A stretch of 64,000 nucleotides of DNA from Terriglobales bacterium (GCA_041946765.1 JBHGAZ010000021.1:4279-68278), one strand, 5' to 3'. Shown: positions 3,124 through 58,617, numbered from the stretch's first letter. Program-made: numbers and translations. The notes: generated by a model from the letters alone, not told the origin.

Positions 3124-3136
3124 ATTACTGGGTAAC

Positions 3137-3154: not shown

Positions 3155-3217
3155 AGCCTTTCTAAGTCTTTGATTTCACGCGGCCAGAACTCGACCGGCG
3201 GTTAGGGAGACCGCTGG

Positions 3218-20900: not shown

Positions 20901-21083
20901 ATCAAGCCAATGACGGTCGCGGGGAAGAAGGTTTACCAGATCGGGTTCCCCATCCACTGGGGATTGATTGGATACAGTGGCCAGGAGGGCGGCATGGCCA
21001 ACCTCGTCACGCCAACGATTCTTGATCCCAATTCGTTCGCTCCGGAATACAAGGGGTTCCTTGTAAAGCTGGAGAAGGCATAG
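17991..21083 (+). CDS. fdnG: Formate dehydrogenase-N/O type catalytic alpha subunit, selenocysteine-containing, Tat-exported
   Basis: Track ORFs 17991..18575 and 18588..21083 are in the same frame, separated only by TGA 18573-18575. The context QQARI-U-HGPTVASLAATFGRGAMTNGW matches the E. coli FdnG Sec site. Twin-arginine signal: MSPTRRDFLKTS. Confidence 0.9.
18580..18615 (+). promoter_or_regulatory. SECIS-like stem-loop downstream of the fdnG UGA
   Basis: Upper stem GTGGCC/GGCCGC (one G-U pair) with loop AGTTT. Lower stem GCCC/GGGC. The apical loop starts 18 nt after the UGA. Confidence 0.55.
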
Positions 21084-21999: not shown

Positions 22000-22011
22000 G
22001 AGGGAACAGAC

Positions 22012-38202: not shown

Positions 38203-39333
38203 TTGCGAGCCAGCATCAAGCTTGGGCGGGTTTGGGGCATTGAACTCGGCCTTCACTTCAGTTGGATCCTCATTGCCATCTTGATCACCTTCTCTCTGGC
38301 GGCCCAGTTCGGCCATACCAACCCTGAATGGGGAACGGGAGTCATCTGGCTTTCCGCCATCGTCACCGGCGTACTCTTTTTCGCGGCGATTTTTGCTCAC
38401 GAACTTTCGCACGCATTCGTTGCCAAGCTGCGAGGGCTCCCCATCCACAAGATCACGCTCTTTTTTCTCGGCGGCGTAGCTCAGATCGAACGCGAGGCTA
38501 ACGACGCCAAGACGGAATTCTGGATGGGCATTGCTGGCCCCATCATGAGCGTACTGGTGGGGCTCGTCTGCCTGGGCATTGCGATCCTGGGAGGCTGGAC
38601 CATGGGCGCAATCCCAGCGTCCCCCGTCCTCGCCGTCCTGGTCTGGCTGGGATACATCAACCTGCTCTTGGCCGCGTTCAACATGATCCCCGGCTTCCCT
38701 CTGGATGGCGGACGCGTGTTACGCGCTATCATCTGGTGGGTTACGAAAAACGAAGTCCGCTCCACCCGTATCGCCGCGCGCGTGGGCCAAGTGGTGGCTG
38801 TCGTCTTCATTACCTGGGGAATCTGGCGGTTCTTCACGGGCGCGGGGCTGGGTGGGCTGTGGCTGGCATTTATCGGATGGTTTCTGATGCAGGCAGCCAG
38901 CGCCAGCTATCTGCAGGTGCAGGCTGCGTCCGTGCTGCAGGACCTGCGCGTTGGCGATGTCATGTCGCGCGATTGCGTTTCCGTGGACGGCAACTCCGAT
39001 TTGCAGACGTTCGTCCATCAATACCTGTTGCGCACCGGCCGGCGTTGCTTTGTAGTACTTGAGGATGGCCGAATGACGGGTCTGGTGACGCCGCACGAGG
39101 TCAAAGAGGTCAATCCGGACCTCTGGCGCACTACCCGCATCCGCGATGTCATGCGTCCGGTGGATCGCGTGCACGTGGTCAGTCCAAGCACGCCTCTATT
39201 TGAAGCCCTGCAATTGATGGGCCGCGAAGACATTAACCAGCTTCCTGTGCTCTCGAATGGCAGGCTGGAAGGCATTCTGTCTCGCAGCCACGTGCTTCAG
39301 GTTCTGCAGTCGCGGGCCGAACTCGCGGCCTGA
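38203..39333 (+). CDS. Site-2 (M50 family) metalloprotease with C-terminal CBS pair
   Basis: 376 aa. HELSHAFVA (HExxH), FNMIPGFPLDGGRV, then two CBS-like repeats. Confidence 0.85.
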   Translation: MRASIKLGRVWGIELGLHFSWILIAILITFSLAAQFGHTNPEWGTGVIWLSAIVTGVLFFAAIFAHELSHAFVAKLRGLPIHKITLFFLGGVAQIEREANDAKTEFWMGIAGPIMSVLVGLVCLGIAILGGWTMGAIPASPVLAVLVWLGYINLLLAAFNMIPGFPLDGGRVLRAIIWWVTKNEVRSTRIAARVGQVVAVVFITWGIWRFFTGAGLGGLWLAFIGWFLMQAASASYLQVQAASVLQDLRVGDVMSRDCVSVDGNSDLQTFVHQYLLRTGRRCFVVLEDGRMTGLVTPHEVKEVNPDLWRTTRIRDVMRPVDRVHVVSPSTPLFEALQLMGREDINQLPVLSNGRLEGILSRSHVLQVLQSRAELAA

Positions 39334-39352
39334 CCCCGCATCTAAACGCGGA

Positions 39353-40201
39353 ATGGCTACACAACGCTGGGAACCACCACACGAGCAGGAACCTGAGAAA
39401 CAGGAACAAAGTCGCGAGGCTCTTCAGCTCGACACCTCGCGGATGACCGCCCACGAAATTCTGGAAGGCGCCGCTGAGCTGGGCCGCAACGAACTGAAGC
39501 GATCTTCCAAGGCGCTGGCGATTTCAGGACTTGCCGGCGGTCTAACCATGGGTCTCACCGGCATGGCAGTTGCTATCGCTCAGGTCACGCTGGGAGCCGG
39601 ACAAATGCAGGAGTTTGTTTCTTACATTTTTTATCCGGTGGGCTTCATTGCGGTAATCATCGGCCGAGCTCAGTTATTTACCGAAAACACTCTCTTCCCG
39701 GTGGTGCTGATCCTGAGTGAACGCCGCCATGTGCTGAGCACGCTCCGGCTCTGGATCGTAGTGTTTCTCTCAAATAGCATCGGCGCAGCCGCCTTTGCCG
39801 TTCTCGCGGTCTTGACCGGCGCATTGCGCAGCGACTTTGCATCCGAGCTGGTCACGCTCGGAGTGCAGTCTGCCAATCAGGAGATGGCCCACATTTTCTG
39901 GACCGGCGTGATTGGCGGCTGGCTCATTGCCCTGGTGGCCTGGTTGGTAACCGCCAGCCACTGGACCGTGGGACAAATCGTGGTTGTCTGGTTGTTGACT
40001 TTCATCGTTGGATTGGGGCGTTTCGCCCACTGCATCGCTACCAGCGGAGAAATTTTTGCGTCGGTGTTCGCCGGAGCTATTCCGTTCGGCTCGTACGTCC
40101 GTTGGATCATACCGGCAACCGCGGGCAACATCGTCGGCGGAGTGACGATCGTCAGCCTGCTGAACTACGGCCAGGTCAAAGCAGGCGAGACCCTGGAGTA
40201 A
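39353..40201 (+). CDS. Formate/nitrite transporter (FNT) family channel
   Basis: 282 aa from the ATG at 39353. IIGRAQLFTENT, GNIVGG at the C-terminus, six TM segments. Confidence 0.75.
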   Translation: MATQRWEPPHEQEPEKQEQSREALQLDTSRMTAHEILEGAAELGRNELKRSSKALAISGLAGGLTMGLTGMAVAIAQVTLGAGQMQEFVSYIFYPVGFIAVIIGRAQLFTENTLFPVVLILSERRHVLSTLRLWIVVFLSNSIGAAAFAVLAVLTGALRSDFASELVTLGVQSANQEMAHIFWTGVIGGWLIALVAWLVTASHWTVGQIVVVWLLTFIVGLGRFAHCIATSGEIFASVFAGAIPFGSYVRWIIPATAGNIVGGVTIVSLLNYGQVKAGETLE

Positions 40202-41478: not shown

Positions 41479-41691
41479 AGAGATTTTAGAGAAAAGAAGA
41501 GGAGTAGTAGCGCGGGTGCCTCGCCCGCGACCGGTAAACGAAAAGCGGGGAAGCAACAGCACAACTCGGGCTGGTTGTTACCGCTTGCTGCTTGCTGCTC
41601 GTTGCTTGCTGCTTCGGACAACCTGCGCTTCCCACCCGCGCTCTACCCGTAGAGAGCTTGGCCTCTGGAATTTTCGACAATCTGAGCTAAC

Positions 41692-42189
41692 GTGCCGGTC
41701 TCGCGGACAAAGTTGGCGATTTTCTGGCTGGCGAACTGGGCTATTTTTCTCGGCCTCTGGTTTCTTTACACCAACACGCCAAAATTGCCTGAGCTGCTGG
41801 CCGGAGCAGGAGCTGCGGCCCTGGCCGCCACCGGTTCTGCGATCGTGCAGGGGCAGCACTTTGCTCGCTTTGCACCCAAGCCGAAGTGGTTGGCGCTCTT
41901 CCTCACCGAACCGTGGTACGTGATAACCGGCAGTAAGGCAATCGTCTGGGCGATGTTCAAGAAGCTGGCCGGCAAGGGATCCGAAGCTCAACTCAAAGCC
42001 GTTGCTTTCCAGGCCGGCGGCGAGGATCCCGAATCAGCCGCACGTCGCGCGCTTGCCATCGCGCTGACCACGATCCCGCCAAATTTTGTCGTCATCGGCA
42101 TCGATAAACAGCAGAACACGATGCTTATCCACCAGGTAGCCCCAAGCGGCACACCATGGGTCACAAAGCAACTGGGAGCAACCGGATGA
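41692..42189 (+). CDS. mrpE: Mrp/Mnh antiporter subunit E-like
   Basis: 165 aa. N-terminal TM helices and LTTIPPNFVVIGIDKQQNTMLIHQV, resembling the MnhE TLTPGT...H motif. It is the first gene of a coupled seven-gene set. Confidence 0.5.
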   Translation: MPVSRTKLAIFWLANWAIFLGLWFLYTNTPKLPELLAGAGAAALAATGSAIVQGQHFARFAPKPKWLALFLTEPWYVITGSKAIVWAMFKKLAGKGSEAQLKAVAFQAGGEDPESAARRALAIALTTIPPNFVVIGIDKQQNTMLIHQVAPSGTPWVTKQLGATG

Positions 42190-42437
42190 ACCCATGGCTG
42201 CTCTGCGCCACCGTCATGCTGTTCTGCCTCGTTCCCTGCGGCATCATCGTCTTTCGTAGCACGCCCATGGACCGTTTAGTGGGACTGGAAATGGCAGGCA
42301 TGGTCGAAGCCCTGTTGCTCATCCTGCTCGCACAAGGTTTCCACCGCATTCCGTTTTACGACCTCGCGCTCGCCCTGGCGCTGCTGGCCTTCGGCGGCGG
42401 ACTTGTCTTTTCCCGGTTCCTGGAGCGCTGGCTATGA
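42186..42437 (+). CDS. mrpF: Mrp/Mnh antiporter subunit F-like
   Basis: 83 aa, three TM helices, ATGA overlap with mrpE. Confidence 0.6.
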   Translation: MNPWLLCATVMLFCLVPCGIIVFRSTPMDRLVGLEMAGMVEALLLILLAQGFHRIPFYDLALALALLAFGGGLVFSRFLERWL

Positions 42438-42808
42438 GCAATCGGCAGACAGCTATCGACGTGCTGCTGTGGATCGGCACTATGACCACAGTGATCTGCT
42501 GCCTGGGCATGTTGGTCATGAAAGACTTTTTCGAAAAGCTCCACTATATGGCGACTGTGGCCACCATCAGCGCTTTTGCCATCCTAGCAGCCGTGCTTTT
42601 GCAGGAAGGGTGGGGACAGGCCGGTGTTAAAGCGATCCTTGTTTGTGGCGTTCTGCTTTTGATGAATTCCGTGCTGACGCATGCCACTGCGCGCGCCGCC
42701 CGTGTACGGAAACTCGGCCATTGGACCCCACAGCCAGGCGAGCAAATTGAGGGCACAAAAGGACGCGGCGGTTCTGAGCGCCAGGGGGAGCGCAAAAGCA
42801 ACGAATGA
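42434..42808 (+). CDS. mrpG: Mrp/Mnh antiporter subunit G-like
   Basis: 124 aa. FEKLHYMATVATISAFAILAAV...NSVLTHATARAA. Confidence 0.6.
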   Translation: MSNRQTAIDVLLWIGTMTTVICCLGMLVMKDFFEKLHYMATVATISAFAILAAVLLQEGWGQAGVKAILVCGVLLLMNSVLTHATARAARVRKLGHWTPQPGEQIEGTKGRGGSERQGERKSNE

Positions 42809-43158
42809 TCAACTCTGTTACCCGCCACCGGAGTCAGCCCATGCTGGTCATGCAAGTGACGATTTTGGTGTTCGTTGCCATTGCTGGCACGGGCGTCGTG
42901 CTCACACGCGATCCCGCCAGCCAGAGTATAGCCGTCAGCTTCTATGGACTGCTGCTCGCACTGCTGTTCTTCATTTATCAGGCGCCGGACGTGGCACTGT
43001 CGCAGATCGTGACCGGCGCCGTTGCCCTCCCCTTGATGATCATGCTGGCACTCGCAAAGATCCGCCGCACGACCGAAGACCAGCAGCGCGAAAAGGAGAG
43101 GACCGGCAAAGCACGCAGAGCCGAGCGGCCGGTCAAAAGAGAAAAGGAGGCTGCATGA
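42805..43158 (+). CDS. DUF4040 (MrpA C-terminal / MbhD-like) membrane protein
   Basis: 117 aa. FFIYQAPDVALSQIVTGAV matches the recalled DUF4040 core (APDVALTQ). Confidence 0.6.
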   Translation: MINSVTRHRSQPMLVMQVTILVFVAIAGTGVVLTRDPASQSIAVSFYGLLLALLFFIYQAPDVALSQIVTGAVALPLMIMLALAKIRRTTEDQQREKERTGKARRAERPVKREKEAA

Positions 43159-44003
43159 GCCTCCGGGTGCGCCTGCCGTTCTTTATCATCTCGGGGCTTG
43201 GCTTTCTTGCCTTTTATATCTGGGGCCTTCGTGGACTTCCCGCGTTCGGCCATTATCGCGGCCCGTACGGAGATTTCATCAACGCCATAACGGTCTTTGA
43301 GCGGCACGTGACGGACACCGTAACCGCCGTCAATTTCGATTTCCGCGGCTTGGATACGCTTGGGGAAGAATTCATCCTGTTCATCTCGGTGGTGGGGGTC
43401 ACGCTGCTGCTGCGCAAAGAAGAGCACAGCGAAATCCAGGGTTCTGAGCGTGACCAGAGCCACGGCCGCATGCCTACAAAATCCGAACCACGCGCAGCCG
43501 GGCGGGCGGACGATGAGCAGGCGAGCGACCAGCGCGACCAAGCGACCGAGCGCAACGCGCCATCTCCCAGCGATGCTACCCGCGTGCTGACCCTCGGGCT
43601 TGTTGGCCCGCTCGTGTTATTCGGCATCTACATCGTCACACACGGCCAATTGACTCCCGGCGGTGGATTTCAAGGCGGCGTCATTCTGGCTACCGCGCCG
43701 CTGCTGGTGTATCTGGCGGGTAGTCTCCCTACTTTCAAACATATCGTTTCCCACACGCTCGTGGAAATTACGGACGCCATGGGAGCCGGCGGGTACGTGC
43801 TGATCGGGTTGGCAGCGCCATTTCTGGGCGCCAACTTTCTGGCCAACATTGTTCCTCTGGGGACGACCGGGAACGTGAATTCTGGCGGTACCATTCCCTT
43901 AATCAACCTCGCGGTCGGCCTGGAAGTCGCATCCGCATTTGTGCTGTTGCTGTACGCCTTCCTGGAAGAGACCCTGGAGAGAATGGAAGAACGGGAGGAT
44001 TGA
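43155..44003 (+). CDS. mrpB: Fusion of an MrpA-C-terminal-like segment and MrpB, joined by a ~55-aa acidic low-complexity linker
   Basis: 282 aa. TAVNFDFRGLDTLGEEFILF, then KEEHSEIQGSERDQSHGRMPTKSEPRAAGRADDEQASDQRDQATERNAPSPSDA, then HGQLTPGGGFQGGVILA (MrpB motif). Confidence 0.65.
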   Translation: MSLRVRLPFFIISGLGFLAFYIWGLRGLPAFGHYRGPYGDFINAITVFERHVTDTVTAVNFDFRGLDTLGEEFILFISVVGVTLLLRKEEHSEIQGSERDQSHGRMPTKSEPRAAGRADDEQASDQRDQATERNAPSPSDATRVLTLGLVGPLVLFGIYIVTHGQLTPGGGFQGGVILATAPLLVYLAGSLPTFKHIVSHTLVEITDAMGAGGYVLIGLAAPFLGANFLANIVPLGTTGNVNSGGTIPLINLAVGLEVASAFVLLLYAFLEETLERMEERED

Positions 44004-44362
44004 GTTTGGGTGCGGTCATCAGCTTCCTGCCATTCGCCATCGCTGCCTGGCTCTTTGTTGCGGGTCTTTATGGAGTTGCGACCAGCCGAAATCTGGTGCA
44101 CCTGATCATCTGTCTGGCCGTGCTCCAATCCTCTACTTATGTTCTGCTGCTCTCGATCGGATATCGTGTCGGCGGCGTTGCGCCCGTTTTCGCCGATATT
44201 CCGGTAGGTACTCCAGCAGTGGATCCGATTATGCAGGCGCTCATGCTAACCGACATTGTGGTGGAAGCAACCGTGATGGCACTGCTGCTGGCTCTTGCCG
44301 TGCAGACGCATAAGCGCACCGGTACGCTCGATCCCGACAAGCTGAAGGAGCTGCGCGGCTGA
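44000..44362 (+). CDS. mrpC: Mrp subunit C (NuoK-like)
   Basis: 120 aa, three TM helices. LFVAGLYGVATSRNLVHLIICLAVLQSS. TTG start overlapping the upstream stop. Confidence 0.7.
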   Translation: MSLGAVISFLPFAIAAWLFVAGLYGVATSRNLVHLIICLAVLQSSTYVLLLSIGYRVGGVAPVFADIPVGTPAVDPIMQALMLTDIVVEATVMALLLALAVQTHKRTGTLDPDKLKELRG

Positions 44363-46185
44363 TGAGCGCCGATGTTCTGGTCCCGCTCCCGGTCGCGCTC
44401 CCGATGGTCATGGCGGCGTTCCTCGCCGGCGCGAAACAATTTATTCCGCGCCGGGCCGCCGATCTTCTGACCATCTTCACCACCATCGCTGTCGGGCTGA
44501 TTTGCGGCGCGCTGATCTATTACACCGTGCCGGAGCCGATTGTTTACTGGTTTGGAGGATGGACACCACGTTGGGGAGTCGCACTGGGGATCTGCTTCGT
44601 TGCAACTCCCATTGCCTGCGGGTTTGCTGCGCTGGTGAGCACGCTGATGCTTGCCGCGCTGGTTTTTTCCTGGCGCTATTTCGACACCATCAAGACACTT
44701 TTCCACGTGCTCATGCTTGTCTTCCTGGGCGCGATGTGCGGTTTCTGCCTTACCGGCGATCTCTTCAATTTCTTCGTCTTTTTCGAGCTCATGAGCGCAT
44801 CGGCGTTCGCGCTCTGCGGCTACAAAATCGAGGAAGCCGGACCCTTGCAGGGCGCATTCAATTTCGCCGTCACCAACACGATTGCCGCGTTCTTGGTCTT
44901 GTCGGGAATCGGCCTGCTCTACGGACGCACCGGCGCGCTCAACATGGCGCAGATCGGACGCGCGCTCGGCAGTCAGCCGGACAGCCTGGTGATTACTGCG
45001 TTCGTCTTCATCATGGCCGGTTTCTTTGTCAAAGCCGCTGTTGTTCCCTTTCATTTCTGGCTGGCAGACGCGCATGCGGTCGCGCCTACCCCCGTGTGCG
45101 TGCTGTTTTCCGGAGTGATGGTGGAACTGGGCATTTACGCTGTCGCGCGCGTGTATTGGTCGGTAATGGATGGCGCGTTCGCCTCCCATCATTCGGCTCT
45201 GCGAGGTCTGCTCCTAGGGATCGGAGTGATCACTGCGTTGCTTGGCGCCATCATGTGCTACAGCCAGCGGCATTTGAAGCGACTGCTGGCATTCTCGACT
45301 GTCAGCCACGTGGGCCTGCTCGTGATCGGATTTGCATTGCTGGAACCGGGCGCACTGGCGGGAGCCGCGAGTTACGTTGTCGGGCACGGTCTCGTGAAAT
45401 CAGCGCTGTTTCTCTGTTCGGGCATTCTGTTACATCGCCTCGGCAGCGTGGATGAACTGGAATTACGTGGCCGCGGCCGTCACATGCGCGGCACTGCCGT
45501 GATGTGGGTGCTCGGCGGACTCGGGTTGGCCGGCATGCCCGGTTTCGCCACCTTCCTCGGAGAGCTCGAGATTGATCACGGTGCTGAGAAACTCGGCCAG
45601 GGCTGGCTGGCCTGGATTTTTTTCGTATCGGGTGCTTTGACAGCAGGAGCGGTGCTGCGTGTTGCCGGACGCGTGTTCGCGGGCTACGGCGGCAAGAAAA
45701 AAGACGCAATCACCGGGTCGCAAAAAATCGAAGAGCGTCGCGAAACTAAAGGCCCGCACAGGCGCGTCCCGTTGTCCATGGCACTTCCTGCCGCCGTGCT
45801 GATGTTGCTGGCAGTCTTAGTTGGTCTCATTGGCAATCGCATCCACCATGCCACCAGCTTCGCGGCTGCGGAATTGGCCGACCACGCCGGCTACCAGGCG
45901 CGCGTACTCGACGACGCCAGAATTCCTGTAAACATCTCCGGCGAGGAACACGAGACTGCCACTGCTATGGCGCGTAGCTATGGCGCGACGGCGGCCGCAT
46001 TTCTGCTTGCCTGGTTATCGTTGTGGCAAGGCGGCATGAAAAAGCACCGTGATGCTCTGCTCGGCATGGCTCTGCACCCGCTTCGCAGCATCCACAGCGG
46101 GCACATCTGCGATTATGTTGCTTTCCTAACCTTCGGCGTTGCCGCGTTTGGCGCAGTTCTCGTCGTCCTGTTTCGAATCTTGTAA
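44362..46185 (+). CDS. mrpD: Mrp subunit D (NuoM/N-like antiporter subunit)
   Basis: 607 aa. FFELMSASAFALCGY, FFVKAAVVPFHFWLADAHAVAPTPV, KRLLAFSTVSHVG. Confidence 0.8.
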   Translation: MSADVLVPLPVALPMVMAAFLAGAKQFIPRRAADLLTIFTTIAVGLICGALIYYTVPEPIVYWFGGWTPRWGVALGICFVATPIACGFAALVSTLMLAALVFSWRYFDTIKTLFHVLMLVFLGAMCGFCLTGDLFNFFVFFELMSASAFALCGYKIEEAGPLQGAFNFAVTNTIAAFLVLSGIGLLYGRTGALNMAQIGRALGSQPDSLVITAFVFIMAGFFVKAAVVPFHFWLADAHAVAPTPVCVLFSGVMVELGIYAVARVYWSVMDGAFASHHSALRGLLLGIGVITALLGAIMCYSQRHLKRLLAFSTVSHVGLLVIGFALLEPGALAGAASYVVGHGLVKSALFLCSGILLHRLGSVDELELRGRGRHMRGTAVMWVLGGLGLAGMPGFATFLGELEIDHGAEKLGQGWLAWIFFVSGALTAGAVLRVAGRVFAGYGGKKKDAITGSQKIEERRETKGPHRRVPLSMALPAAVLMLLAVLVGLIGNRIHHATSFAAAELADHAGYQARVLDDARIPVNISGEEHETATAMARSYGATAAAFLLAWLSLWQGGMKKHRDALLGMALHPLRSIHSGHICDYVAFLTFGVAAFGAVLVVLFRIL

Positions 46186-46310
46186 GGGGCTCCTCTTGTC
46201 AGTTGCGCCACTCGCGCCAGCACAGCTGCTTCCCCACCGCAGAGTCACTCAACGGGGACTGCTGAATCCGAGTCCCTGCCTTATAATTCTTCCTTCCGGA
46301 CAAATTCTTC

Positions 46311-48164
46311 ATGAACTCATCCGTAGCAGGGCAAGAACGCCTCAGGACCGTCCTTATCCCGGACACAACGGCGCCGCCTTCCACTCGCAACCGATTCTTC
46401 ATGGCGGCGATCCTGTTTCTGTGGCTCGTCATCTACGTGCCCGGCCTTTTCCGGCCGCCGCTGCTCGACGATGCGGATTCCGTCCACGCCGAAGCCGCGC
46501 GCGAGATGGTGTTGCGCGGCGACTGGGTCACGCTCAACGCCAACGGCATCCGCTACCTGGAAAAAGCGCCTTTGATGTACTGGTCCATGGCGGCCAGTTT
46601 CAAATTGTTTGGCGTCCATGATTGGTCGGCGCGCCTGCCGCTCGCGCTCGGCACGCTGGCTTTGCTGTTCGTGACTTACATTCTGGGCCGTCGCTCGTTC
46701 GGTGAGGAAGGCGGCTTCTGGGCGGCCACGATCCTCGCCACGGGATTCGGCCCTTACATCTTTACTCGCATTCTGATTCCCGACATTCTCGTGGGACTTT
46801 GGCTGGCGCTCGGCTTCCTGTTTTTTCTGCGCACCCTTGAGCAGCAACAGCCTTCGCGTCTCGACTGCTGGGGATTCGCCGTCGTTTCCGCGTTGAACGT
46901 GCTCACCAAAGGTCTGATCGGGATGGTATTTCCGGTCGGCGTCATTTGTCTCTACCTGCTCCTGACCCGCAATCTGAAGCATCTGTTGCGTCTTCGCCTG
47001 CTCTCCAGCACGCTGGTGTTCCTCGCTGTGGCGGCTCCGTGGCACATTCTGGCGGGACTGCGCAATCCCGCCGCGGGTCAGGCCCCGCACGGCTTCTTCT
47101 GGTTTTACTTCGTTAACGAACACTTCCTGCGATACCTGAACAAGCGCTTCCCGCGCGATTACGATACCGTTCCCCTGCTCGTCTTCTGGGGACTGGTGCT
47201 CGCCTGGGTGCTGCCCTGGAGCGCATTCGTCATCCAGGCTGCCGGCCAAATTCCACGCCGGCTGCGCGACTATGCCTCTGGCCTCGACCGTCGTCAGCGC
47301 GCCAATTTAGTATTTGCGCTCTGGGTGCTGGTAGTCGTGATCTTCTTCAGCTTCTCGACCCGGCAGGAGTACTACACAATTCCGGCATTGCCGGGGCTGG
47401 CGCTGCTGCTCGGAGGCTGGCTGGCACGTGAAGCCGAGTCGCCTGCCGGCAGCTGCCTGCGCCGCAGCGGCCGCCTCAGTTCGACATTTCTGCTCATGCT
47501 TGGTGTGATGGTGTTTGCCGGCGCTATGCTGGTTTTGCGCGAATCCAAGCTGCCGCCCGCCGGCTACGATCTTGCCGACTTGCTGAAGAAGAATCCCGAA
47601 GAGTACGCGCTCTCCTTCGGCCACATCTTCGACCTGACACCGCAAGCGATGGGCGCGTTTCGGGTCCCGTTAATGGGGTTTGCGCTCGCCCTGCTCATCG
47701 GCGCCGCTGTGAACTGGGTACTGCGCCGTCGTGATCTGCCTCGTATTGGCAATGTTGCCATGACCGCGATGATGATTGTCGTCCTCTACTGCGCACACCT
47801 GGGCTTGGTCATCTTCAGCCCGATCCTGACCTCCAAAGTGCTCGCCCAGAAAGTGCTCGCCGTCTATCGTCCCGGCAATGTCATCGTGATTGATGGCGAA
47901 TACGAGCCCGGCTCGACCATGAACTACTACACCGGCGTCCAGTGTCACATTCTGAACGGCCGCTCCGCCAACCTGTGGTACGGATCGCTGTTCCCAGACT
48001 CGCCCCAAATTTTTGAGGACGATGCCTCTTTCGCAAAGCTGTGGGACAGCGCCACTCGTGTGTTCCTGTGGACTGACAAGCCAATGCCGAAGCAGTTGCA
48101 AGGAAAGCAAGCCTTTGTTCTGGCCCGTAATGGAGGGAAAACCATCTTTACCAACCGGCAGTAA
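46311..48164 (+). CDS. GT39/ArnT-like membrane glycosyltransferase
   Basis: 617 aa, polytopic. PPLLDDADSVHAEAAREMVLRGDWVTLNANGIRYLEKAPLMYW is typical of the PMT_2/ArnT family. Confidence 0.75.
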   Translation: MNSSVAGQERLRTVLIPDTTAPPSTRNRFFMAAILFLWLVIYVPGLFRPPLLDDADSVHAEAAREMVLRGDWVTLNANGIRYLEKAPLMYWSMAASFKLFGVHDWSARLPLALGTLALLFVTYILGRRSFGEEGGFWAATILATGFGPYIFTRILIPDILVGLWLALGFLFFLRTLEQQQPSRLDCWGFAVVSALNVLTKGLIGMVFPVGVICLYLLLTRNLKHLLRLRLLSSTLVFLAVAAPWHILAGLRNPAAGQAPHGFFWFYFVNEHFLRYLNKRFPRDYDTVPLLVFWGLVLAWVLPWSAFVIQAAGQIPRRLRDYASGLDRRQRANLVFALWVLVVVIFFSFSTRQEYYTIPALPGLALLLGGWLAREAESPAGSCLRRSGRLSSTFLLMLGVMVFAGAMLVLRESKLPPAGYDLADLLKKNPEEYALSFGHIFDLTPQAMGAFRVPLMGFALALLIGAAVNWVLRRRDLPRIGNVAMTAMMIVVLYCAHLGLVIFSPILTSKVLAQKVLAVYRPGNVIVIDGEYEPGSTMNYYTGVQCHILNGRSANLWYGSLFPDSPQIFEDDASFAKLWDSATRVFLWTDKPMPKQLQGKQAFVLARNGGKTIFTNRQ

Positions 48165-48177
48165 GAAGGTGCGAAAG

Positions 48178-49347
48178 TTACTCCGCTTGGGTTACCGGCC
48201 GCAGCTTTCCGTTTTCCAGAATGAACTCGTCGCCGCGCCACGCGACGGTGTGTCCGGTATAGGACACAATCCAGATCAGCAGCGCCAGGACATCGCGCAG
48301 CGGCAGCAGCCACAGATCACCGGGAATTTGCGGATCGCGCAGCACGCGCTGTCCCACCACGATTGCCATGGTGTAGCGGATGGCCGCGGTGGCGCCCAGC
48401 AGCGCAAGCGTCCAGCCCGCGCCGCCGGCGAGCAATACCGCAACCAAGGCCCAAGGCAGGCCGAACGTCAGCGCCACTCCGAGATAGCCCCAACGTCGCG
48501 AGTCGCGCGTGCTGCGGGCCCAGCGCAATTGATGATCCCAGTAGGCGCGGAAGGAATAGTCCGGCAGGAATGTGTCCACCACCACGTCTGACATGATGAC
48601 TTCGAGGTGGGCGGCGGCAATACGCGCGCCCAGTTCGAAGTCATCGGCCAGATAATCCAGCAGCGGCTCGAATCCCCCGATCGCGGCCAGCGAGCGACGC
48701 GTGAATGCCAGCGTGGAACCGAGGGCAAACCGGATGCCTTCCAGTTGCCGCGCGGCGAGCACCCCGGCGGCAAAGTCGGTGCTAATGCCAACCGCTTCCA
48801 GCTTCGATCCCAGCGTGCTACCCGCCATGCCACGGTACATGGTTGTGACCATCCCGACACGCTCGTCCGAAAATGGCGCGAGAATGCGCCGCAGGTAATC
48901 GTGGCCGACGCGGATGTCACTATCGTTTACGATCAGGTGCTCGTAGCGCGCGTGCGGCAGCATCTGTACCAGGTTACTGACTTTGATGTTGGCACCCAGC
49001 AGGCCGGAGCAGACAACAAGTTCGATGCGGCGCTCGGGGAATTCCTGCCGCAACCGCTCCACCAGGGCAATTGCCGGGTCTTTTGGATCGCTGACGCCAA
49101 AAATGAGCTGGTACTCGGGGTAGTCCTGGAGACAATGACTGCGGAAGCTTTCATACATCTGGCGGTCGGCGCCGCGCAGCGGCTTGAGGATGGAAACGGG
49201 AGGCGTGAAGCCGTTGTCCAGTTTAGTTCGCGACCAGTCGCGCAGGAAATTGCGCGCGCTCCACAAGCATAGGACATAGTATCCGATGCCGCATAGCGCG
49301 AGCACCGCCAAAACTGCTTCGCCAAACCTGACAAAATTATGGGCCAT
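48178..49347 (-). CDS. GT2/GT21 glycosyltransferase (ceramide glucosyltransferase / HpnI-like)
   Basis: 389 aa. PPVSILKPLRGADRQMYESFRSHCLQDYPEYQLIFGV...VNDSDIRV...QLRWARSTR. Confidence 0.75.
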   Translation of the reverse strand: MAHNFVRFGEAVLAVLALCGIGYYVLCLWSARNFLRDWSRTKLDNGFTPPVSILKPLRGADRQMYESFRSHCLQDYPEYQLIFGVSDPKDPAIALVERLRQEFPERRIELVVCSGLLGANIKVSNLVQMLPHARYEHLIVNDSDIRVGHDYLRRILAPFSDERVGMVTTMYRGMAGSTLGSKLEAVGISTDFAAGVLAARQLEGIRFALGSTLAFTRRSLAAIGGFEPLLDYLADDFELGARIAAAHLEVIMSDVVVDTFLPDYSFRAYWDHQLRWARSTRDSRRWGYLGVALTFGLPWALVAVLLAGGAGWTLALLGATAAIRYTMAIVVGQRVLRDPQIPGDLWLLPLRDVLALLIWIVSYTGHTVAWRGDEFILENGKLRPVTQAE

Positions 49348-51568: not shown

Positions 51569-52798
51569 CTACAATTCGAATCTCAGCGCCGCTATGGGAT
51601 CCAGCGATGCAGCCCGTCGCGCAGGATAAACGCCAAAGAAAATGCCCACGCTGGCGGAAACCACCAGCCCCGCCAGAACCGCCCAGAGTTTGATCGCCGA
51701 CGGCATGCCGACCAGAATAGTCACGGTCTTTGCCAAGGTAATTCCGCCGACAACGCCTATCAGCCCTCCAACCAGGGCCATCGTGCTGGACTCAATCAGA
51801 AACTGTCGCGCTATGTCCGACCCGCGCGCGCCCATGGCTTTGCGAATACCGATCTCGCGCGTGCGCTCGGTCACGGAGACCAGCATGATATTCATGATCA
51901 CAATTCCGCCCACGATCAGCGCGATAGCAGCAATGGCGATCATGGCAATAAAGAAGCTGCTGCTGATGTTCTTCCAGATCCCCAGGAAGGTCTCGTTCGT
52001 CTCCAGGGAGAAACTGTCGGGTTTGCCCGGCCAGTCGTGGCGGCGTGCGCGCAGAATCACGCGGGCTTCATCCATTGCCGTTTCCAGGTTCGCGCCCACC
52101 CCGTACGCCTTACCGGCGATACGGATGCTCTGGTGCGAACCGTACTGCCGCAGCCAGGCAGTAATCGGAATCACCACCCAGTTGTCGCGGCTCTGGCCCA
52201 GCGTCTTGCCTTCCTTCTTGCCGACCCCGATCACGCGATAGGCGCGTCCGTCCACGCGGATTTCACGGCCAATAGGGTCCAGGCCCACCAGCAGCTTGTC
52301 GAAGACGTCGTAACCAATAATGGCCACGTCCGACGCGTTCCGCACATCCGAGTCGCTGATGCTGCGCCCGCTGATGAGGTCCAGATCGTAGATCGGGGCG
52401 TAGTCTGCAGTCCACCCACGTACCCAAGTGTCACTGCTCGATTGGTCCCCATACTTGACGTTACCGTTCGGCCAGAATCCCGATGCGCCCACGTACTGGC
52501 AGTGCTTGCAAGCTTCCGCAATGGCGCGGTAGTCATCCAAGGTGATGTCCTTGCGCTTCTCGCCTTCCAGGAAGTCGTCGGCTTTCGTCACTACGGGAGA
52601 AACTTTGCTGATCAGGAAGACATCGGCGCCCAGCCGGAAAATACGTTGGGCCACATATGCATTGATTCCGTTGACGAAGGTGACCACCGCAATGACAGCC
52701 GCCACCCCGATCACCACGCCCAGCAGCGTCAGGATCGAACGGAGCTTGTTGGCCCAGAGGGACTGGAGGGCAATACGAATGGCCTCAGAAGTATTCAT
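51569..52798 (-). CDS. ABC transporter permease, MacB-periplasmic-core + FtsX type (paralog)
   Basis: 409 aa from the ATG at 52798 ([21 protein letters not shown]...). [14 protein letters not shown]...[21 protein letters not shown]. Confidence 0.85.
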
Positions 52799-52962
52799 GC
52801 GGAGATCCTGATTAAGTTTAGCATTCACAGGCGCAGCCATTCGTAATCTGCACGGGAGCCCGTGCGCGCAAGAACAAGAAGGAACCACAGTCTGTCCCGT
52901 CCAATGGCGGCACGGCTCCAGCTTTCCCTGGCTGCAAACGTCAATTAAGAGTACGGAATCTT

Positions 52963-53348
52963 TCATCCCAGCAGGTGCGAACTGACGTACAAAGATGCGT
53001 AAGCCTTGTCCCCTGGGTTCTGCAGCTTTCGGTGGACATGCCAGCCCTTGAATCCTCCCTCCGGGGATACACTTCTGAAAACCCGTGCTCTTTCAACTGC
53101 CGCGCCACACTGGCGCCGGTCTTCTCGCCGCTTCAAGTGCAATAGGTGACGAGGGTTCGATTCCGCGGCAAGTGCTTCAGGGCTCTCCCGACCTCTTTCG
53201 CGGGCACATGGATGGCGCCCGGCACCTGCTCCGGGTTGCGCGCCAGCGCCGTGGCGCTGCGCGCATCCACGAAGACAACGTCGTTCATGTGTTTCTTGAC
53301 ATCATCAATGCTGATCCTGCTGATCTTCGTCTTGCCATCCGTTGTCAT
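52963..53348 (-). CDS. Rhodanese-like protein with in-frame TGA (candidate selenocysteine, motif C-T-U) and a 1-nt frameshift; alternatively a pseudogene
   Basis: ...VFVDARS...RTLVTYCT-TGA-SGEKTGASVARQLKEHGFSEVYP. After a -1 nt shift in the CCCC run at 53061-53064 it continues PEGGFKGWHVHRKL... to a stop at 52963. Track ORF 53133..53438 is only the part before the TGA. Confidence 0.5.
53100..53119 (-). promoter_or_regulatory. SECIS-like hairpin 13 nt downstream of the rhodanese TGA
   Basis: Minus strand CCgGCGCC-AGUGU-GGCGCGG: 7 bp with one bulge. The apical loop starts 21 nt after the UGA and contains GU. Confidence 0.35.
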
Positions 53349-53437
53349 GCTTACGCTTCCTTCCGAATCTCGGCATTGCAAATCGGGCCTACTTGCATCT
53401 TCGATTTCTATTGTCGGAGCCGGTCCGAGCCCAGACA

Positions 53438-53788
53438 ATGAACCATCCGTACTGCTCGCATGTAGGCCATAATGAAAGCGCTCCTTGCCCTGGCGCAGCT
53501 CTCAGGGGCGCGGTCGCCTTCGTTTCTGCCTCCGCATCACAGTTATTTGGTGAAGGTGTGTACGCCCGGAAATCTCTCCAATCCAAGTTTACTTCGCCCA
53601 CAGAAACCTGCCACATTTGCGTACAGACCATCTTCGGCCACATTCGCATGCAGGCCGATGACAAGCTGTTCGACTTGCCGCAGGGCAAGATGCTGGTGCT
53701 GGACCGTGCCGTCACTCAGGACGTGGAAGCGGTCGAGGAGAGTGCGTTCCTGCTTACTGTGGCCTATCCCGAAAATGCAGGGCCGTAG
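53438..53788 (+). CDS. Cupin-like small protein
   Basis: 116 aa from the ATG at 53438. ...ICVQTIFGHIRMQADDKLFDLPQGKMLVLDRAVTQDVEAVEESAFLLTV resembles the two-strand cupin core. Divergent from the rhodanese gene. Confidence 0.45.
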   Translation: MNHPYCSHVGHNESAPCPGAALRGAVAFVSASASQLFGEGVYARKSLQSKFTSPTETCHICVQTIFGHIRMQADDKLFDLPQGKMLVLDRAVTQDVEAVEESAFLLTVAYPENAGP

Positions 53789-53796
53789 GGTCTGCC

Positions 53797-55227
53797 CTAC
53801 ATGGGCACAACTGTACGGATGAACCGCAGCAGCGGCTCGGGATAAATTCCCAGCCATACCAGGAGCACGGTAAGCGCGCCCAGCACGCCACCGGCGAAGG
53901 AAGAAGCGCGTAATCCAGTGTCCGTCGCGCCCGACTCCGGAGACGCGTACATGGCTGCGACAATTCGCAGGTAATAGAACAGACCGATGATGCTGCTGAC
54001 GACGAGAATAATAATCAGCGCCCAGATCGCAGACGACGCACCGGCGGCGACAATGTAGAACTTGCCGATAAACCCGGCCGTCACCGGAATGCCGGCCAAG
54101 GAGAGCAGCATCACGGTGAAAACCCCGGCCACCGCCGGGCGATGCCAGAACAACGCACGGTAGTCTTCGATGCTTTCGGCTTCTCGCTCATTCGTCGATA
54201 GAGCGCTGATAACCCCGAAGGCACCGAGTGTGGTGACGAAGTATGCGACCAGGTAGAACGTGACCGCCTCGACTGCCAGTTCGCCGCTGGCCAGAAATGC
54301 CACGAGCAAATAGCCCATATGGGCAATAGACGAATACGCCAGGATGCGTTTGACGTTGCTTTGCAACAGCGCCAGCAGGTTTCCCGCGAGCATCGAGGCG
54401 ATCGCGATGATGGCAAAGACAAGCAGAACCTGGCGACTGCTCGCGGCGCCGGATCGATAGAAATATGGCAGCAACAGGGCGAACATCGCGCCCTTGGAAA
54501 CCGTGGCGATGAACGCCGTCACGGGCGCGGGGGCACCTTCGTAGACATCGGGCGTCCAGAGGTGGAATGGCACTACAGCCAGCTTGAAACCGATGCCAGT
54601 AATGATCAGCGCCAACCCGGAAACCAGGAGCACATCGGTGCCATGTCCGGCGGACAGCAATTGCGCCATGCGGCCGAACTCCATTGTGCCCAGGCCGGTG
54701 TACACCAGTGCCATTCCGAACAGCAGGAAAGCCGCCGAAGCCGCAGCCAGGACCAGGTACTTGATTCCGGCTTCCAACGGTCCTCGACGCAAGCGAAGAT
54801 ACGAGACCATGGCATAGAGCGAGATGCTGAGCATCTCCAGTCCGAGAAAGAAGGAGGCGAAGTGGCTGCTGGCCACGAGCATCGCACCGCCCAGGGTGGC
54901 GATCAGCAGCAGGATGTAGAATTCCTCGCGATTGACATCCTGCTTTCGGAGGTAGTCGTAGGCAAAAATCGCAACGGCGACGTCGGCGGCGATGAGCAAG
55001 CCGAAATAAAACAAAGAATACTTGTCAATGACCAGCAAGGAGGTGACCTGGCGTGGGCTGAGAGGCGCCGCGATCCAGATCGCGCCGAACGCTACCGCCA
55101 GTCCTGCCAGCGTTAACCCCAACGTCAAGCCATGGCTGCGGCGCACCGCGATCGTCAGCATGACCAGCACCGAGGTGCCGGCAAGCACGAGGAGCGGCAG
55201 CAGAGCGATGACATCTCTTGCGTTCAT
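53797..55227 (-). CDS. nuoN: NADH-quinone oxidoreductase subunit N
   Basis: 476 aa, polytopic. FKLAVVPFHLWTPDVYEGAPAPVTAF, KRILAYSSIAHMGY. Confidence 0.88.
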   Translation of the reverse strand: MNARDVIALLPLLVLAGTSVLVMLTIAVRRSHGLTLGLTLAGLAVAFGAIWIAAPLSPRQVTSLLVIDKYSLFYFGLLIAADVAVAIFAYDYLRKQDVNREEFYILLLIATLGGAMLVASSHFASFFLGLEMLSISLYAMVSYLRLRRGPLEAGIKYLVLAAASAAFLLFGMALVYTGLGTMEFGRMAQLLSAGHGTDVLLVSGLALIITGIGFKLAVVPFHLWTPDVYEGAPAPVTAFIATVSKGAMFALLLPYFYRSGAASSRQVLLVFAIIAIASMLAGNLLALLQSNVKRILAYSSIAHMGYLLVAFLASGELAVEAVTFYLVAYFVTTLGAFGVISALSTNEREAESIEDYRALFWHRPAVAGVFTVMLLSLAGIPVTAGFIGKFYIVAAGASSAIWALIIILVVSSIIGLFYYLRIVAAMYASPESGATDTGLRASSFAGGVLGALTVLLVWLGIYPEPLLRFIRTVVPM

Positions 55228-55228
55228 A

Positions 55229-56734
55229 TCACCTCCGTACCGCCGCCACAGGCCTGCTGACAGACTGTTGCAGGCTGCTCATCGACGACTTAAAGGTGTT
55301 CAGCACCGGCAGCGGGTACAAGCCCAGCCACAACAGGACAACAATCATGGGCGCGAGAATGATCGCCTCGCGCTTCGTCAGGTCAGCCAGCTTCCACTCT
55401 GCAGGTTAGGGCCATGGAAAGCGCGCTGCACCAGGCGCAGCGCATAGAAGGTCGCAACCAGCACTCCGACGGTCGCTAGAACGGTGAGCACCAGGCTTAC
55501 ACGGACGTCCCGAGGAGAACGAGAAATTCGCCCACGAAGTCGCCCAGTCCTGGCAGACCCAGCGACCCCAAGGCGAAGAAGAGAGCGATACCGCTGAGGC
55601 GCGGGATGGTCACCCAGAGGCCGCTCATGCGATCCATCTCGCGCGTCTGCATACGTTCTTGCAGCAGCCCTGCAATGACAAACAAGGCGCCGGTGCTGAT
55701 GCCGTGGGCAATCATGGTGACCACAGCCCCCTGCAGCGCGAGTGTGTTCCACGCGAAAATCCCCAGCAGCACGAAGCCGAGGTGGCTGACACTGGTGTAG
55801 GCTACCAAGCGCTTGAAATCCGACTGTCCAAAAGCCAGCAATCCGCCGTAGAGGATGCCGATCACTGCCAGAATCATCGCAATGGGCGCAAACTGATGCG
55901 CCGTGCCTGGAAACAGCGGCACCACGAAGCGCAGCAGGCCGTAGGCGCCCGTCTTCAGCAGCAATCCGGCCAGCACAACGCTGCCCGCGGTGGGCGCTTC
56001 GGTGTGCGCATCGGGAAGCCAGGTGTGCACCGGTACCACCGGGAGTTTCACCGCAAAAGCGATGAAGAATCCCAGCATCATCCCCAGGCGGCCATGGACG
56101 ACAGCGGTGTGCCCAGCAACTGCTCGTACTCGAAGGTAAACACGCCGGTCGCGGTGTGGTGGGCAAAGTACAGGGCCAGGATGGCAACCAGCATCAGCAA
56201 GCCGCTGAGCTGGGTAAAGATGAAGAATTTCACCGAGGCATACTGCCGGCGCTCATGACCCCAGAGCGCGATCAGGAAGTACATCGGGACCAGCATCAGT
56301 TCCCAGGCGAAGTAGAAAAGAAACAGGTCCAGCGCCAGGAAGACGCCAGCGATGCCCGCCAGCACCCACAGCAGGTTGAGATGGAAGAAGCCGACGCGGT
56401 CTTGAATTTCTGTCCACGAAACCAGTACCGAGACGATGCCGAGAAAGAACGTGAGCATCAGCAACAGCAGACTGAGCCCATCCATCGCCAGGTGGAAGTG
56501 GATGCCGAAGCGCGGAATCCAGTTCCAGTCCACCTGCTCGATCCAGTTGTTGTGAGGCAGTAGCGAAAGCTGACCGTAGTAGCGAACCCAAAGCACGAGA
56601 CCGATGATGAAATCGGCGGCCGTGGCGAGCAGGGCGATCCAGCGCGCCGCAGCGGTGTTCCAGCGCGCTACCAGCCAGGCCGCTACGCCCGCTATCAAAA
56701 GAATCGCAATGAGCCAAATCAGGATCATGCCCAC
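55229..56734 (-). pseudogene. nuoM: NADH-quinone oxidoreductase subunit M interrupted by three frameshifts
   Basis: The NuoM sequence is spread over track ORFs 56078..56734, 55497..56081 (FAVKLPVVPVHTWLPDAHTEAPTAGSV...) and 55378..56187. The true C-terminus WKLADLTKREAIILAPMIVVLLWLGLYP... is in yet another frame and ends at TGA 55229-55231. Confidence 0.8.
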
Positions 56735-58617
56735 AACACAATGGCGATAAAAACGATTGTGCCTGCGGTAATCCAGGCCGCATACCAGCGCACGCGGCCG
56801 TTTTCCGTGGCGCGCAGCGCCTGCCAGCCGAATTGGTTGACACGCGCGACACCGGTGTAAAAGCTGTCGAGGAAATCGTTTCTGTCAATGTGCGCAAACC
56901 AGATCACCGGGCGCACAAAAACGTGCTCGTAAAGCCAGTCCATACCCCAATCGGCAAACCAGAAGCGGTGAATTGCCTGGCCAACCGCAGCGGCTGCCAG
57001 CTTTTCCGGCACCCTGCGGCGGCGCACGAACAGCAGGTACGCAAAGGCGAGTCCGAGGGCGAACACAATGGCCGCAACGCCTTCCGAGAGACCTTCGGTC
57101 AGGCCGGCAGTGTGTATCTCCGCGACCTCCGGCAGCGCCGAATGGAGCAGGTTCGTGAATGCCGGCACGTTTCCCAACGCCGCGGGAATGTTAACGAAAC
57201 CGCCGACAATCGAAAGCGCCGACAGCACTGCCACCGGCACTTTTATCTGCCAATGCGGCCGGTGCGCCACTTCCATCTTTTTTTCACCGTAGAACACCAG
57301 GAAAATCAGGCGATAGATATAGAGGGAGGTCAGCAGCACGCCGATGATGCCGGCGATCCATAATGCCTTGCTGCCCTGCGATGAACTCCAGGTCTGCCAC
57401 AGGATTAGGTCCTTGCTATAGAACCCAGCGGTGATCAGAGGCAGTCCGGCCAGGGCGGAGCCCCCAATAACGAATCCCCAAAAGGCATACGGCAGATACC
57501 TCCGCAAGCCGCCCATCTTGAAGACGTCATGTTCGTGATGCAGCGCCTGGATGACGACGCCCGCTGCCAAGAACAGCAGGGCTTTGAAGAAGGCATGTGT
57601 CATCAGGTGGAAAATGGCCGCCGACCAGGCGCCCACGCCTAGGGCAAGGAACATGTAGCCGATCTGGCTGATGGTGGAGTAGGCGAGGACGCGCTTGATG
57701 TCGCGCTGCACCAGCGCGCTGCACCCGGCCAGCAACAGCGTGGCCGCGCCGATCACCGCCACAGCAAATTGCGCGGGTGGTGCCAGCGAGAACAGCACAT
57801 GGGTGCGCGCAATCAAATAAACGCCCGCGGTGACCTTGGTGGCAGCGTGAATCAACGCGCTGGTCGGGGTCGGGCCGGCCATGGCGTCAGGAAGCCAGGT
57901 TTGCAGCGGCAGTTGCGCGGATTTTCCTACTGCGCCTCCCAACAGCAGCGCCGCGGCCGCAACCGCAAGGGCGGACCCGGTCGGCCACTGCTCTGTGGCA
58001 CGCTGCATTAACTGCTGGATGTCCAGGGTGCCAAGATGTGTGAACAGCAAGAACAGTCCCACGGCAAAGGCGGTATCGCCCACTCGGGTGACGATGAACG
58101 CCTTCTGCGCAGCCGTGCCATTCACCGGATCCTGGTACCAGAACCCAATCAGCAGATAACTGCACAGGCCCACGCCCTCCCAGCCGAGATAGAGCAGCAG
58201 CAGGTTGTTCGCCAGCACCAGGGTGATCATGGAGGCGACGAACAGGTTCATGTAGGCGAAGAACCGGCTGTAGCCCTCGTCTTCCTCCATGAATTCCGCC
58301 GAGTAGAGATTGATGACGAAGCTGACGAAGCTGACCACCAGCATCATGATCAGCGAGAGCGCGTCCAGGTAGAACGCGATCTGGGGAGTAAAGCCGTCAA
58401 CAGCGATCCAGGTCCACAGCACCTGGGTGTACGACTCACCCGGCGGAGGAGCGGCAAGGTATGCCCCGGTGATCAACAGCGAGAAGATGGTGCAGGCAGC
58501 GATAGAACCCACCCCTACCCACGCCACGGCCCGGCGGGAGGTGCGTGGTCCCACGGTTGCCAGCCACAGAAAGCTGACAAACGGGATGACGGGCACCAAA
58601 AAGAGGAGTTGGAACAA
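56725..58617 (-). CDS. nuoL: NADH-quinone oxidoreductase subunit L
   Basis: 630 aa. GWEGVGLCSYLLIGFWY, GKSAQLPLQTWLPDAMAGPTPTSALIHAATKVTAGVY. Confidence 0.9.
   Translation of the reverse strand: MFQLLFLVPVIPFVSFLWLATVGPRTSRRAVAWVGVGSIAACTIFSLLITGAYLAAPPPGESYTQVLWTWIAVDGFTPQIAFYLDALSLIMMLVVSFVSFVINLYSAEFMEEDEGYSRFFAYMNLFVASMITLVLANNLLLLYLGWEGVGLCSYLLIGFWYQDPVNGTAAQKAFIVTRVGDTAFAVGLFLLFTHLGTLDIQQLMQRATEQWPTGSALAVAAAALLLGGAVGKSAQLPLQTWLPDAMAGPTPTSALIHAATKVTAGVYLIARTHVLFSLAPPAQFAVAVIGAATLLLAGCSALVQRDIKRVLAYSTISQIGYMFLALGVGAWSAAIFHLMTHAFFKALLFLAAGVVIQALHHEHDVFKMGGLRRYLPYAFWGFVIGGSALAGLPLITAGFYSKDLILWQTWSSSQGSKALWIAGIIGVLLTSLYIYRLIFLVFYGEKKMEVAHRPHWQIKVPVAVLSALSIVGGFVNIPAALGNVPAFTNLLHSALPEVAEIHTAGLTEGLSEGVAAIVFALGLAFAYLLFVRRRRVPEKLAAAAVGQAIHRFWFADWGMDWLYEHVFVRPVIWFAHIDRNDFLDSFYTGVARVNQFGWQALRATENGRVRWYAAWITAGTIVFIAIVLWA

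Follow-up and report, generated by a model that had tools for sequence, protein, structure and literature searches.

A probably non-functional, 3'-truncated remnant of a C-x-U rhodanese selenoprotein gene in a Terriglobales genome

Introduction

A rhodanese gene on the minus strand of a 64,000-nt stretch of DNA from a Terriglobales bacterium (hereafter, the window) is interrupted by an in-frame TGA, which raises the questions of whether this codon stands for selenocysteine (Sec), whether the encoded protein is new as a selenoprotein and whether this particular copy is still a working gene. A preliminary description, made from the sequence, had proposed a new selenoprotein with a recoding hairpin, with the reservation that a nearby frameshift might make the locus a pseudogene. 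Here, the locus was compared with its orthologues in genomes and metagenomes, with protein family models and with a second assembly of the same region.

Architecture of the rhodanese locus

The TGA lies exactly where it had been described, after ...LVTYCT in a rhodanese gene on the minus strand. The features of the locus, together with the second TGA-containing gene of the window, are as follows:

53348-53346, minus strand: ATG start codon of the rhodanese ORF, preceded by GGAAGGAAG
53136-53348, minus strand: N-terminal 71 codons (MTTDGK...RNRTLVTYCT), well preserved, including Cys70 (TGC, 53141-53139)
53133-53135, minus strand: in-frame TGA, the predicted Sec codon of the family, after ...LVTYCT, in the column that holds Cys in the Cys-form homologues and the canonical catalytic Cys of rhodaneses
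53064-53132, minus strand: in-frame segment after the UGA, SGEKTGASVARQLKEHGFSEVYP, covering the active-site loop and the following helix (read-through translation)
53100-53119, minus strand: SECIS-like hairpin with core stem and AGUGU loop (RNAalifold consensus, synonymous constraint)
53058-53063, minus strand: 1-nt deletion and two substitutions (DNA alignment to the orthologous loci L034, L035, L002 and L012)
53039-53057, minus strand: out-of-frame remnant encoding GGFKGW, the last conserved rhodanese helix (frame translations and orthologue alignment)
52963-53038, minus strand: non-homologous tail past the breakpoint at 53039/53038, in place of the conserved Q-x-AGLPVE...stop
17991-21083, plus strand: FdnG, the alpha subunit of formate dehydrogenase-N, with an in-frame TGA at 18573-18575

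The ORF of 71 aa that ends at the TGA has exactly the sequence of the NCBI entry MFB3917123.1, which comes from a Terriglobales metagenome-assembled genome (MAG) and carries the annotation of a rhodanese-like protein of 71 aa. Its N-terminal part shares about 95% nucleotide identity with locus L001 and 92% amino acid identity with the 71-aa protein encoded there (P0005). The Pfam Rhodanese model PF00581 matches the window protein with an E-value of 2e-12 and 47.9 bits, above the gathering score of 22.2, and the Cys/Sec column opens the loop that leads into the helix. This is the sole domain of the protein, whose orthologues measure 113-120 aa.

The read-through sequence had been described as perfectly rhodanese-like. 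This holds for SGEKTGASVARQLKEHGFSEVYP, which differs from the corresponding segment of L034 at 2 of 72 nt. Only the first 23 codons after the UGA are still in frame; the frame is lost before GGF. Beyond SGEKTGASVARQLKEHGFSEVYP, the frame-1 translation degenerates to RREDSRAGMSTES..., and the (E)GGFKGW motif is found in another frame than the TGA read-through. In the tail, frame 2 meets a stop at 52965-52963 and frame 1 at 52943-52941.

Evidence that the UGA codon encodes selenocysteine

Of 169 relatives found among 5.8 billion proteins, 124 sequences were compared at the TGA column. Gene callers had rendered 116 of the 124 as fragments ending exactly at YCT, mostly of 71 aa, while seven carried Cys at the column (P0001-P0004, P0007, P0008 and P0102) and one carried Leu (P0006), giving a ratio of Sec to Cys forms of about 16 to 1. 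In the Cys forms, this region reads VTYCTCSGEKTSARVARELKERGFKEVYPLRGGFKTWQRAGLPVE, and the loci that encode such forms (L015 and L037-L041, five of them distinct) have TGT or TGC in place of the TGA. The placement of the TGA on a Sec/Cys column, proposed earlier from a family signature, is thereby borne out. The signature itself, YC(T/S)CPxE, was right as to the Cys at that column and wrong in its continuation, with the closest Cys homologues reading YCTCS[GDH]E[KR]TS...

The DNA of 28 loci in which a stop occupies this column was examined; their sources were GTDB genomes (Bryobacteraceae, Terriglobia, 'Acidobacteria' and Candidatus Binataceae), JGI soil metagenomes and NCBI metagenome assemblies. 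The stop codon was TGA in 28 of 28 and TAA or TAG in none. Nearly all of these loci continue in frame for about 43 conserved rhodanese codons before a proper stop, most of them as SGEKTSARVARELKERGFxEVYPLRGGFKAWQxAGLPVE followed by the stop codon. With TGA found in this column in 28 independent loci, a chance occurrence of the codon can be dismissed. Coding sequence is conserved on both sides of the UGA, and homologues carry Cys at the UGA column. A UGA with a Sec/Cys pair and conserved downstream coding is the standard comparative signature of a Sec codon. As judged from sequence comparison, the TGA marks a genuine selenocysteine-containing rhodanese family with a conserved recoding hairpin. 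Members of this family would be single-domain rhodaneses of about 115 aa in which the UGA is read as Sec at the canonical catalytic-Cys position of the active-site loop (U-S-G-E-K-T-S), and a second Cys two residues upstream would complete a C-x-U motif.

Some relatives depart from this pattern. P0006 (177 aa), in which Leu occupies the Sec/Cys column (VTYCTLSHEK), extends C-terminally into a long unrelated sequence, and its Leu could reflect a UGA-to-UUA change in a decaying copy. Two metagenome copies, L019 (3001-3450) and L028 (2284-2700), carry frameshifts downstream of the UGA, and L029 and L030 (both 3001-3400), from two different samples, represent a common early-degenerated copy. Recurrent decay of the selenoprotein gene may apply to these four damaged copies, or they may contain assembly errors.

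The use of Sec in this organism had been argued from fdnG, and the gene supports that argument well. The Pfam domain Molybdop_Fe4S4 lies upstream of its TGA, and positions 196-1009 of TIGR01553 follow directly after it with 1133 bits (cutoff 814). Because both parts of FdnG flank the TGA, we conclude that the organism decodes UGA as Sec. Among the 10 window ORFs scanned, selA, selB, selC and selD were not found; the 64-kb window holds no tRNA-Sec, its sole tRNA being a tRNA-Ser (UGA anticodon) at 1595-1684 on the minus strand. The ORFs that follow fdnG (21097-23486) are presumed to be fdnH, fdnI and fdhE, and a gene for a formate/nitrite transporter lies at 39257-40201.

A short hairpin under synonymous constraint

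The window does contain the hairpin proposed at 53100-53119, whose AGUGU loop was placed 21 nt after the UGA, and the Sec forms conserve it. Its core stem pairs GCGCC (53116-53112) with GGCGC (53106-53102) around the loop AGUGU (53111-53107), and a CC/GG pairing extends the core around a bulged G to 53119-53100. Counted from the UGA, the stem begins after 16 nt, the loop begins 21 nt after the A of the codon and the hairpin occupies +20 to +34. A distance of about 21 nt between UGA and loop falls in the usual bacterial range (bSECISearch model). The RNAalifold consensus of 21 non-redundant Sec forms consists of exactly this 5-bp stem and 5-nt loop, with no other conserved structure.

The main evidence for a function of this element comes from silent sites. 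Across the 21 Sec forms, the codons AGC, GCC, GTG and GCG at +6, +7, +9 and +10 after the UGA, which form the two arms of the hairpin, show zero synonymous variation, whereas other fourfold-degenerate codons of equally conserved residues show 1.5-1.9 bits of variation. Substitutions in the stem occur in three of the five distinct Cys-form loci (AGT in L015, GCA and GTA in L038 and ACC in L040), against none of the 21 Sec forms (one-sided Fisher p ~0.004, computed by hand from these counts). The stem is invariant in the Sec forms and therefore offers zero compensatory covariation; what supports it is the silent-site constraint together with its relaxation in the Cys forms. Just downstream of the UGA, the mRNA thus has a stem-loop that is constrained beyond what the protein needs.

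Folding energy of the single sequence over the 71 nt after the UGA was no better than that of shuffled sequences (z=0.59), and, considering that a single-sequence fold is uninformative for so short a hairpin, the comparative analysis of synonymous sites was used instead. A longer structure was also considered, in which a long-range lower stem would pair GAAGC (+2 to +6) with GNUUY (+52 to +56). It appears in some single folds only, the third position of the Gly codon pairs in about half of the sequences and the stem is absent from the RNAalifold consensus; hence, it was dropped. An Rfam scan of 52700-53600 detected no SECIS or other family. A weak match to Flavi_CRE at 52803-52900 on the minus strand (28.7 bits against a gathering score of 42, E=0.006) is sub-threshold and was taken as chance; it sits in the leader of a MacB-like permease gene, a region that may be structured. 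Unique to the window copy is an A-to-G substitution at 53117, in the bulge position, by which Gly replaces Ser78, a residue invariant in the family.

In the mechanism that we propose, the short GC hairpin GCGCC-NGNGU-GGCGC would direct recoding by recruiting SelB-GTP-Sec-tRNA(Sec), as in other bacterial selenoprotein mRNAs.

The predicted active site

In an alignment with the solved rhodanese-like structure 6MXV, the Sec column coincides with the catalytic Cys of the CGGGFRS loop in both domains, and Cys70 aligns two residues upstream of that catalytic Cys. The spacing from Sec to the following helix and to the 'GF' motif matches the canonical loop. The TGA had been placed two codons after a catalytic-type Cys, an assignment that is probably reversed: the structural alignment puts Sec on the catalytic Cys and makes Cys70 the extra residue. 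The AF2 model of the Cys homologue P0001 (pLDDT 84.7) comprises the strand TLVTY, the loop CTCSGE, a helix, the strand VYPL, the helix GFKTWQR and a short final strand. The part lost from the window copy corresponds in this model to helix 98-104 and the terminal strand.

By analogy, the motif is probably a catalytic Sec with a vicinal, probably resolving, Cys. As in rhodaneses and in C-x-U and C-x-x-U selenoproteins, the Sec most likely carries a persulfide- or selenosulfide-type intermediate, which Cys70 would resolve through a selenenylsulfide.

Lesions in the window copy

The nearest relatives, L034 and L035, share the 5' UTR with the window, are about 88% identical to it over roughly 510-570 aligned nt and are intact, ending ...EVYPLRGGFKSWQKAGLPVEPVP*; the normal gene end among orthologues is of the type ...CAAAAAGCAGGATTGCCAGTCGAG... 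The window copy differs from them in two ways. In the first lesion, CCCCTGCGTGGAGG of the orthologues has become CCCCGGAG-GGAGG, and the frame shifts at the Leu-Arg before GGF; the missing base can be placed anywhere within 53058-53063. The frameshift noted in the preliminary description is therefore a real 1-nt deletion, although the CCCC run to which it was assigned lies at 53063-53066 rather than at 53061-53064. The second lesion, overlooked at that time, is the end of homology at 53039. Similarity is lost after TGGCA, and the conserved domain end Q-x-AGLPVE, about 10 last codons, is absent; the blastn HSPs of L034, L035, L002, L012, L043, L044 and L045 (73-89% identity) all end at 53039. 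No reading frame of the window copy thus runs intact through the conserved C-terminus.

An 11-nt deletion that would restore frame 1, with 'AGMSTE' standing for 'AGLPVE', was also considered; the DNA alignment after TGGCA is poor and blastn ends at 53039, and a breakpoint was preferred. Neither direct repeats nor IS-like ends were found around the junction in a repeat search, and tblastn detected no second rhodanese copy in the 64-kb window. Over the 5' 285 nt, five changes are specific to this lineage, two synonymous and three non-synonymous; with so few changes, decay would be recent and is not demonstrable from the substitution pattern alone.

Gene order changes at the same place. Upstream, the window keeps the synteny seen in L043 and L044, with nuoL-nuoM-nuoN, a small opposite-strand ORF and the rhodanese. 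On the downstream side, the rhodanese is followed by HhH-GPD, Fer4 or NUDIX genes in relatives and by two MacB-like permease genes in the window. A rearrangement or deletion with its breakpoint at 53039 probably removed the last ~10 codons along with the ancestral downstream genes. The simplest course would be one event of illegitimate recombination or deletion that broke the gene within its last 30 nt. The small lesions cluster within 25 nt of the breakpoint and may belong to the same event. Start codon, UGA and hairpin are intact, and the product would be without the last helix and strand of the fold.

Other aspects of the gene neighbourhood were recorded as well. The neighbours of the rhodanese (nuoLMN, Thiamine_BP, HhH-GPD, Fer4, NUDIX, ComA and Sdh) are too variable to serve as a clue to function. 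In L035, L038 and L045, a Thiamine_BP (PF01910) gene that is missing in the window lies upstream of the rhodanese; in L035, it is contained in a stretch of about 635 nt (163-797, corresponding to window position ~53601/53602) beside the small opposite-strand ORF. The absence of this stretch from the window points to remodelling of the intergenic region upstream of the gene as well, among close relatives. Elsewhere, the window encodes an Mrp-type Na+/H+ antiporter cluster (MnhG and MnhB domains) at 41686-48164 on the plus strand, the hopanoid gene hpnI at 48178-49347 on the minus strand (TIGR03472, 383 bits) and a type I restriction enzyme R subunit (ResIII and EcoEI_R_C domains) at 13795-16263 on the plus strand. 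The ORF pair 13082-13978 and 13795-16263 was considered as a second split gene and proved to be this R subunit with an overlapping spurious ORF.

Pseudogene, assembly artefact or unusual protein

Whether the lesions belong to the organism or to its assembly can be addressed with a Logan contig (L042, 4086 nt, run SRR29307520) that is 100% identical, without gaps, to 51869-55954 and spans both lesions. The contig ends inside nuoM (55230-56737, minus strand), a gene 2-3.5 kb from the rhodanese. Compared with its orthologue in L043, which is intact and 500 aa long, nuoM is split over four frames by three 1-nt deletions near 56084, 55505 and 55400, and the contig shares two of these. The flanking nuoL (56725-58617) and nuoN (53797-55227) are intact, as are the long window ORFs of 1104, 831, 822, 735 and 706 aa. 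Considering that the other long genes are intact apart from nuoM, the window has no general indel problem, and the region is either locally decaying, with nuoM as a second pseudogene, or a poor stretch common to both assemblies. An organism with an intact and functional rhodanese, as in L034 and L035, would be compatible with the data if the deletion and the junction at 53039 had arisen from a consensus error or a chimeric join of strains. The source of the window is a MAG, its start codon, UGA, hairpin and first 95 codons are nearly unchanged relative to intact relatives, and the three deletions in nearby nuoM could mark a locally poor assembly; the end of L042 inside nuoM may reflect low coverage or strain branching, and this contig may stem from the same reads as the MAG, which would allow a systematic read-level error. 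Yet a second, k-mer-based assembly agrees with 51869-55954 at every base, the deletion, the junction and two nuoM deletions included, in a window whose other long genes are unbroken. A simple homopolymer error can account neither for the end of homology at 53039 nor for the altered gene order downstream. We consider an artefact unlikely, while keeping it in view.

Should the sequence be correct, the gene might still produce a working protein with a divergent C-terminus, either by frame-1 read-through to 52941 or by ribosomal frameshifting, given that the promoter-proximal part, the UGA and the hairpin are intact and that frame 1 stays open for 64 codons past the UGA. Such a protein would lack the GGFxxW helix and the AGLPVE strand, core fold elements that are invariant or nearly so in all intact members; the new tail has no homologue in the comparisons with orthologous loci, and no frameshift-stimulating signal is evident on reading the sequence, all of which makes this reading improbable. 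Still further from the evidence, and in our view highly improbable, is an ordinary stop with the annotated 71-aa protein as its product. Gene callers annotate more than 100 records in this way, but the fragment would be without the active-site loop and half of the rhodanese fold, and almost every orthologue keeps the ~43 codons past the TGA conserved in frame. In addition, no stop other than TGA occurs at this column, some homologues have Cys there and silent sites in the hairpin downstream are constrained. The locus is most likely the remnant of a genuine selenoprotein gene, and the window copy a recent pseudogene. The reservation about a pseudogene expressed at the outset thus turns out to describe the locus best, with a frameshift and a 3' loss at 53039 that both recur in the Logan assembly.

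Relation to known selenoproteins and comparison with known systems

Rhodanese-related sulfurtransferases had been named as one of the reported bacterial selenoprotein families, and this was correct. The best NCBIfam model for the window protein and the intact orthologues is NF041203, 'rhodanese_LYCAU, rhodanese-related (seleno)protein', which gives 68.7 bits for the window read-through and 86.6-96.9 bits for Cys forms and intact orthologues, scores that all fall short of the curated 115-bit cutoff. The alignment covers almost the whole model (positions 16-125 of 126), and these single-domain rhodaneses, about 120 aa long, share its Y-C-x-U motif in the form TYCT-U. Rhodaneses with C-x-U are listed as predicted selenoproteins under 'form 3, NF041203, CxU' (PMC13188914) and 'COG0607 form 2, CxU' (PMC9312934) and have been on record since 2005, both papers crediting Zhang & Gladyshev 2005 (bSECISearch). 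The Sargasso Sea survey includes rhodanese-related sulfurtransferase selenoproteins as well. Other selenoproteins with a rhodanese domain are forms 1, 2 and 4 (UxxS or UxxG) and TsoB (NF045694, UxxxxU), all bioinformatic predictions (PMC13188914). The window clade is therefore not a new selenoprotein family, contrary to the original proposal, as the C-x-U kind is already catalogued as NF041203. Considering that kind and motif are common to both, while the scores stay below the NCBI membership cutoff, we place the clade as a sister of NF041203.

On balance, we lean towards the view that the T-Y-C-T-U rhodaneses form a distinct selenoprotein subfamily without a model of its own, falling below the NF041203 cutoff, which is widespread in soil Acidobacteriota (Terriglobia and Bryobacteraceae) and Binataceae, has the preponderance of Sec over Cys forms given above (~16:1), uses an unusually small invariant SECIS (5 bp and a 5-nt loop) and has more than 100 entries cut to 71 aa, the window representing a recent loss by 3' rearrangement in a Sec-decoding organism. 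These public entries, including the NCBI protein of the window, are annotated as 71-aa 'rhodanese-like' fragments but should be read as predicted selenoproteins with a length of about 115 aa. The truncated annotation would be mended by a subfamily model or by lowering the NF041203 cutoff. Set against natural Cys forms, the invariant 15-nt hairpin offers a compact case for the minimal requirements of a bacterial SECIS. The window copy itself, a 3'-truncated remnant of a known kind of selenoprotein and probably non-functional, should not be counted as a functional selenoprotein and rather illustrates the loss of such a gene in a soil acidobacterium that uses Sec. The understanding of Sec decoding and of rhodanese chemistry is unchanged.

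Compared with bacterial SECIS elements of the E. coli fdhF/fdnG type and with the bSECISearch model, the rhodanese hairpin likewise lies immediately downstream of the UGA, inside the coding sequence, has G and U in its apical loop and begins that loop about 21 nt after the UGA; it differs in that its conserved part is very short (5 bp and a 5-nt loop), with no conserved lower stem and no Rfam match. Its protein resembles NF041203 in consisting of one rhodanese domain (about 115-126 aa) in which a Cys precedes Sec by two residues, but reads T-Y-C-T-U instead of L-Y-C-A-U and scores below the cutoff, and the window copy is 3'-truncated. With forms 1, 2 and 4 and TsoB, it shares a Sec in the rhodanese active-site loop, whereas those proteins have other Sec-flanking motifs and no vicinal upstream Cys, and the TsoB model reaches ~24-27 bits here. 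GlpE was matched solely as the NCBIfam model NF001195, with 31-41 bits. Canonical Cys-containing rhodaneses of solved structure, such as the tandem protein 6MXV and the thiosulfate sulfurtransferase 1YT8, have the same fold and the same spacing of active-site loop and helix, while the family described here has Sec in place of Cys, an extra Cys at -2 and Thr, not Arg, before the helix.
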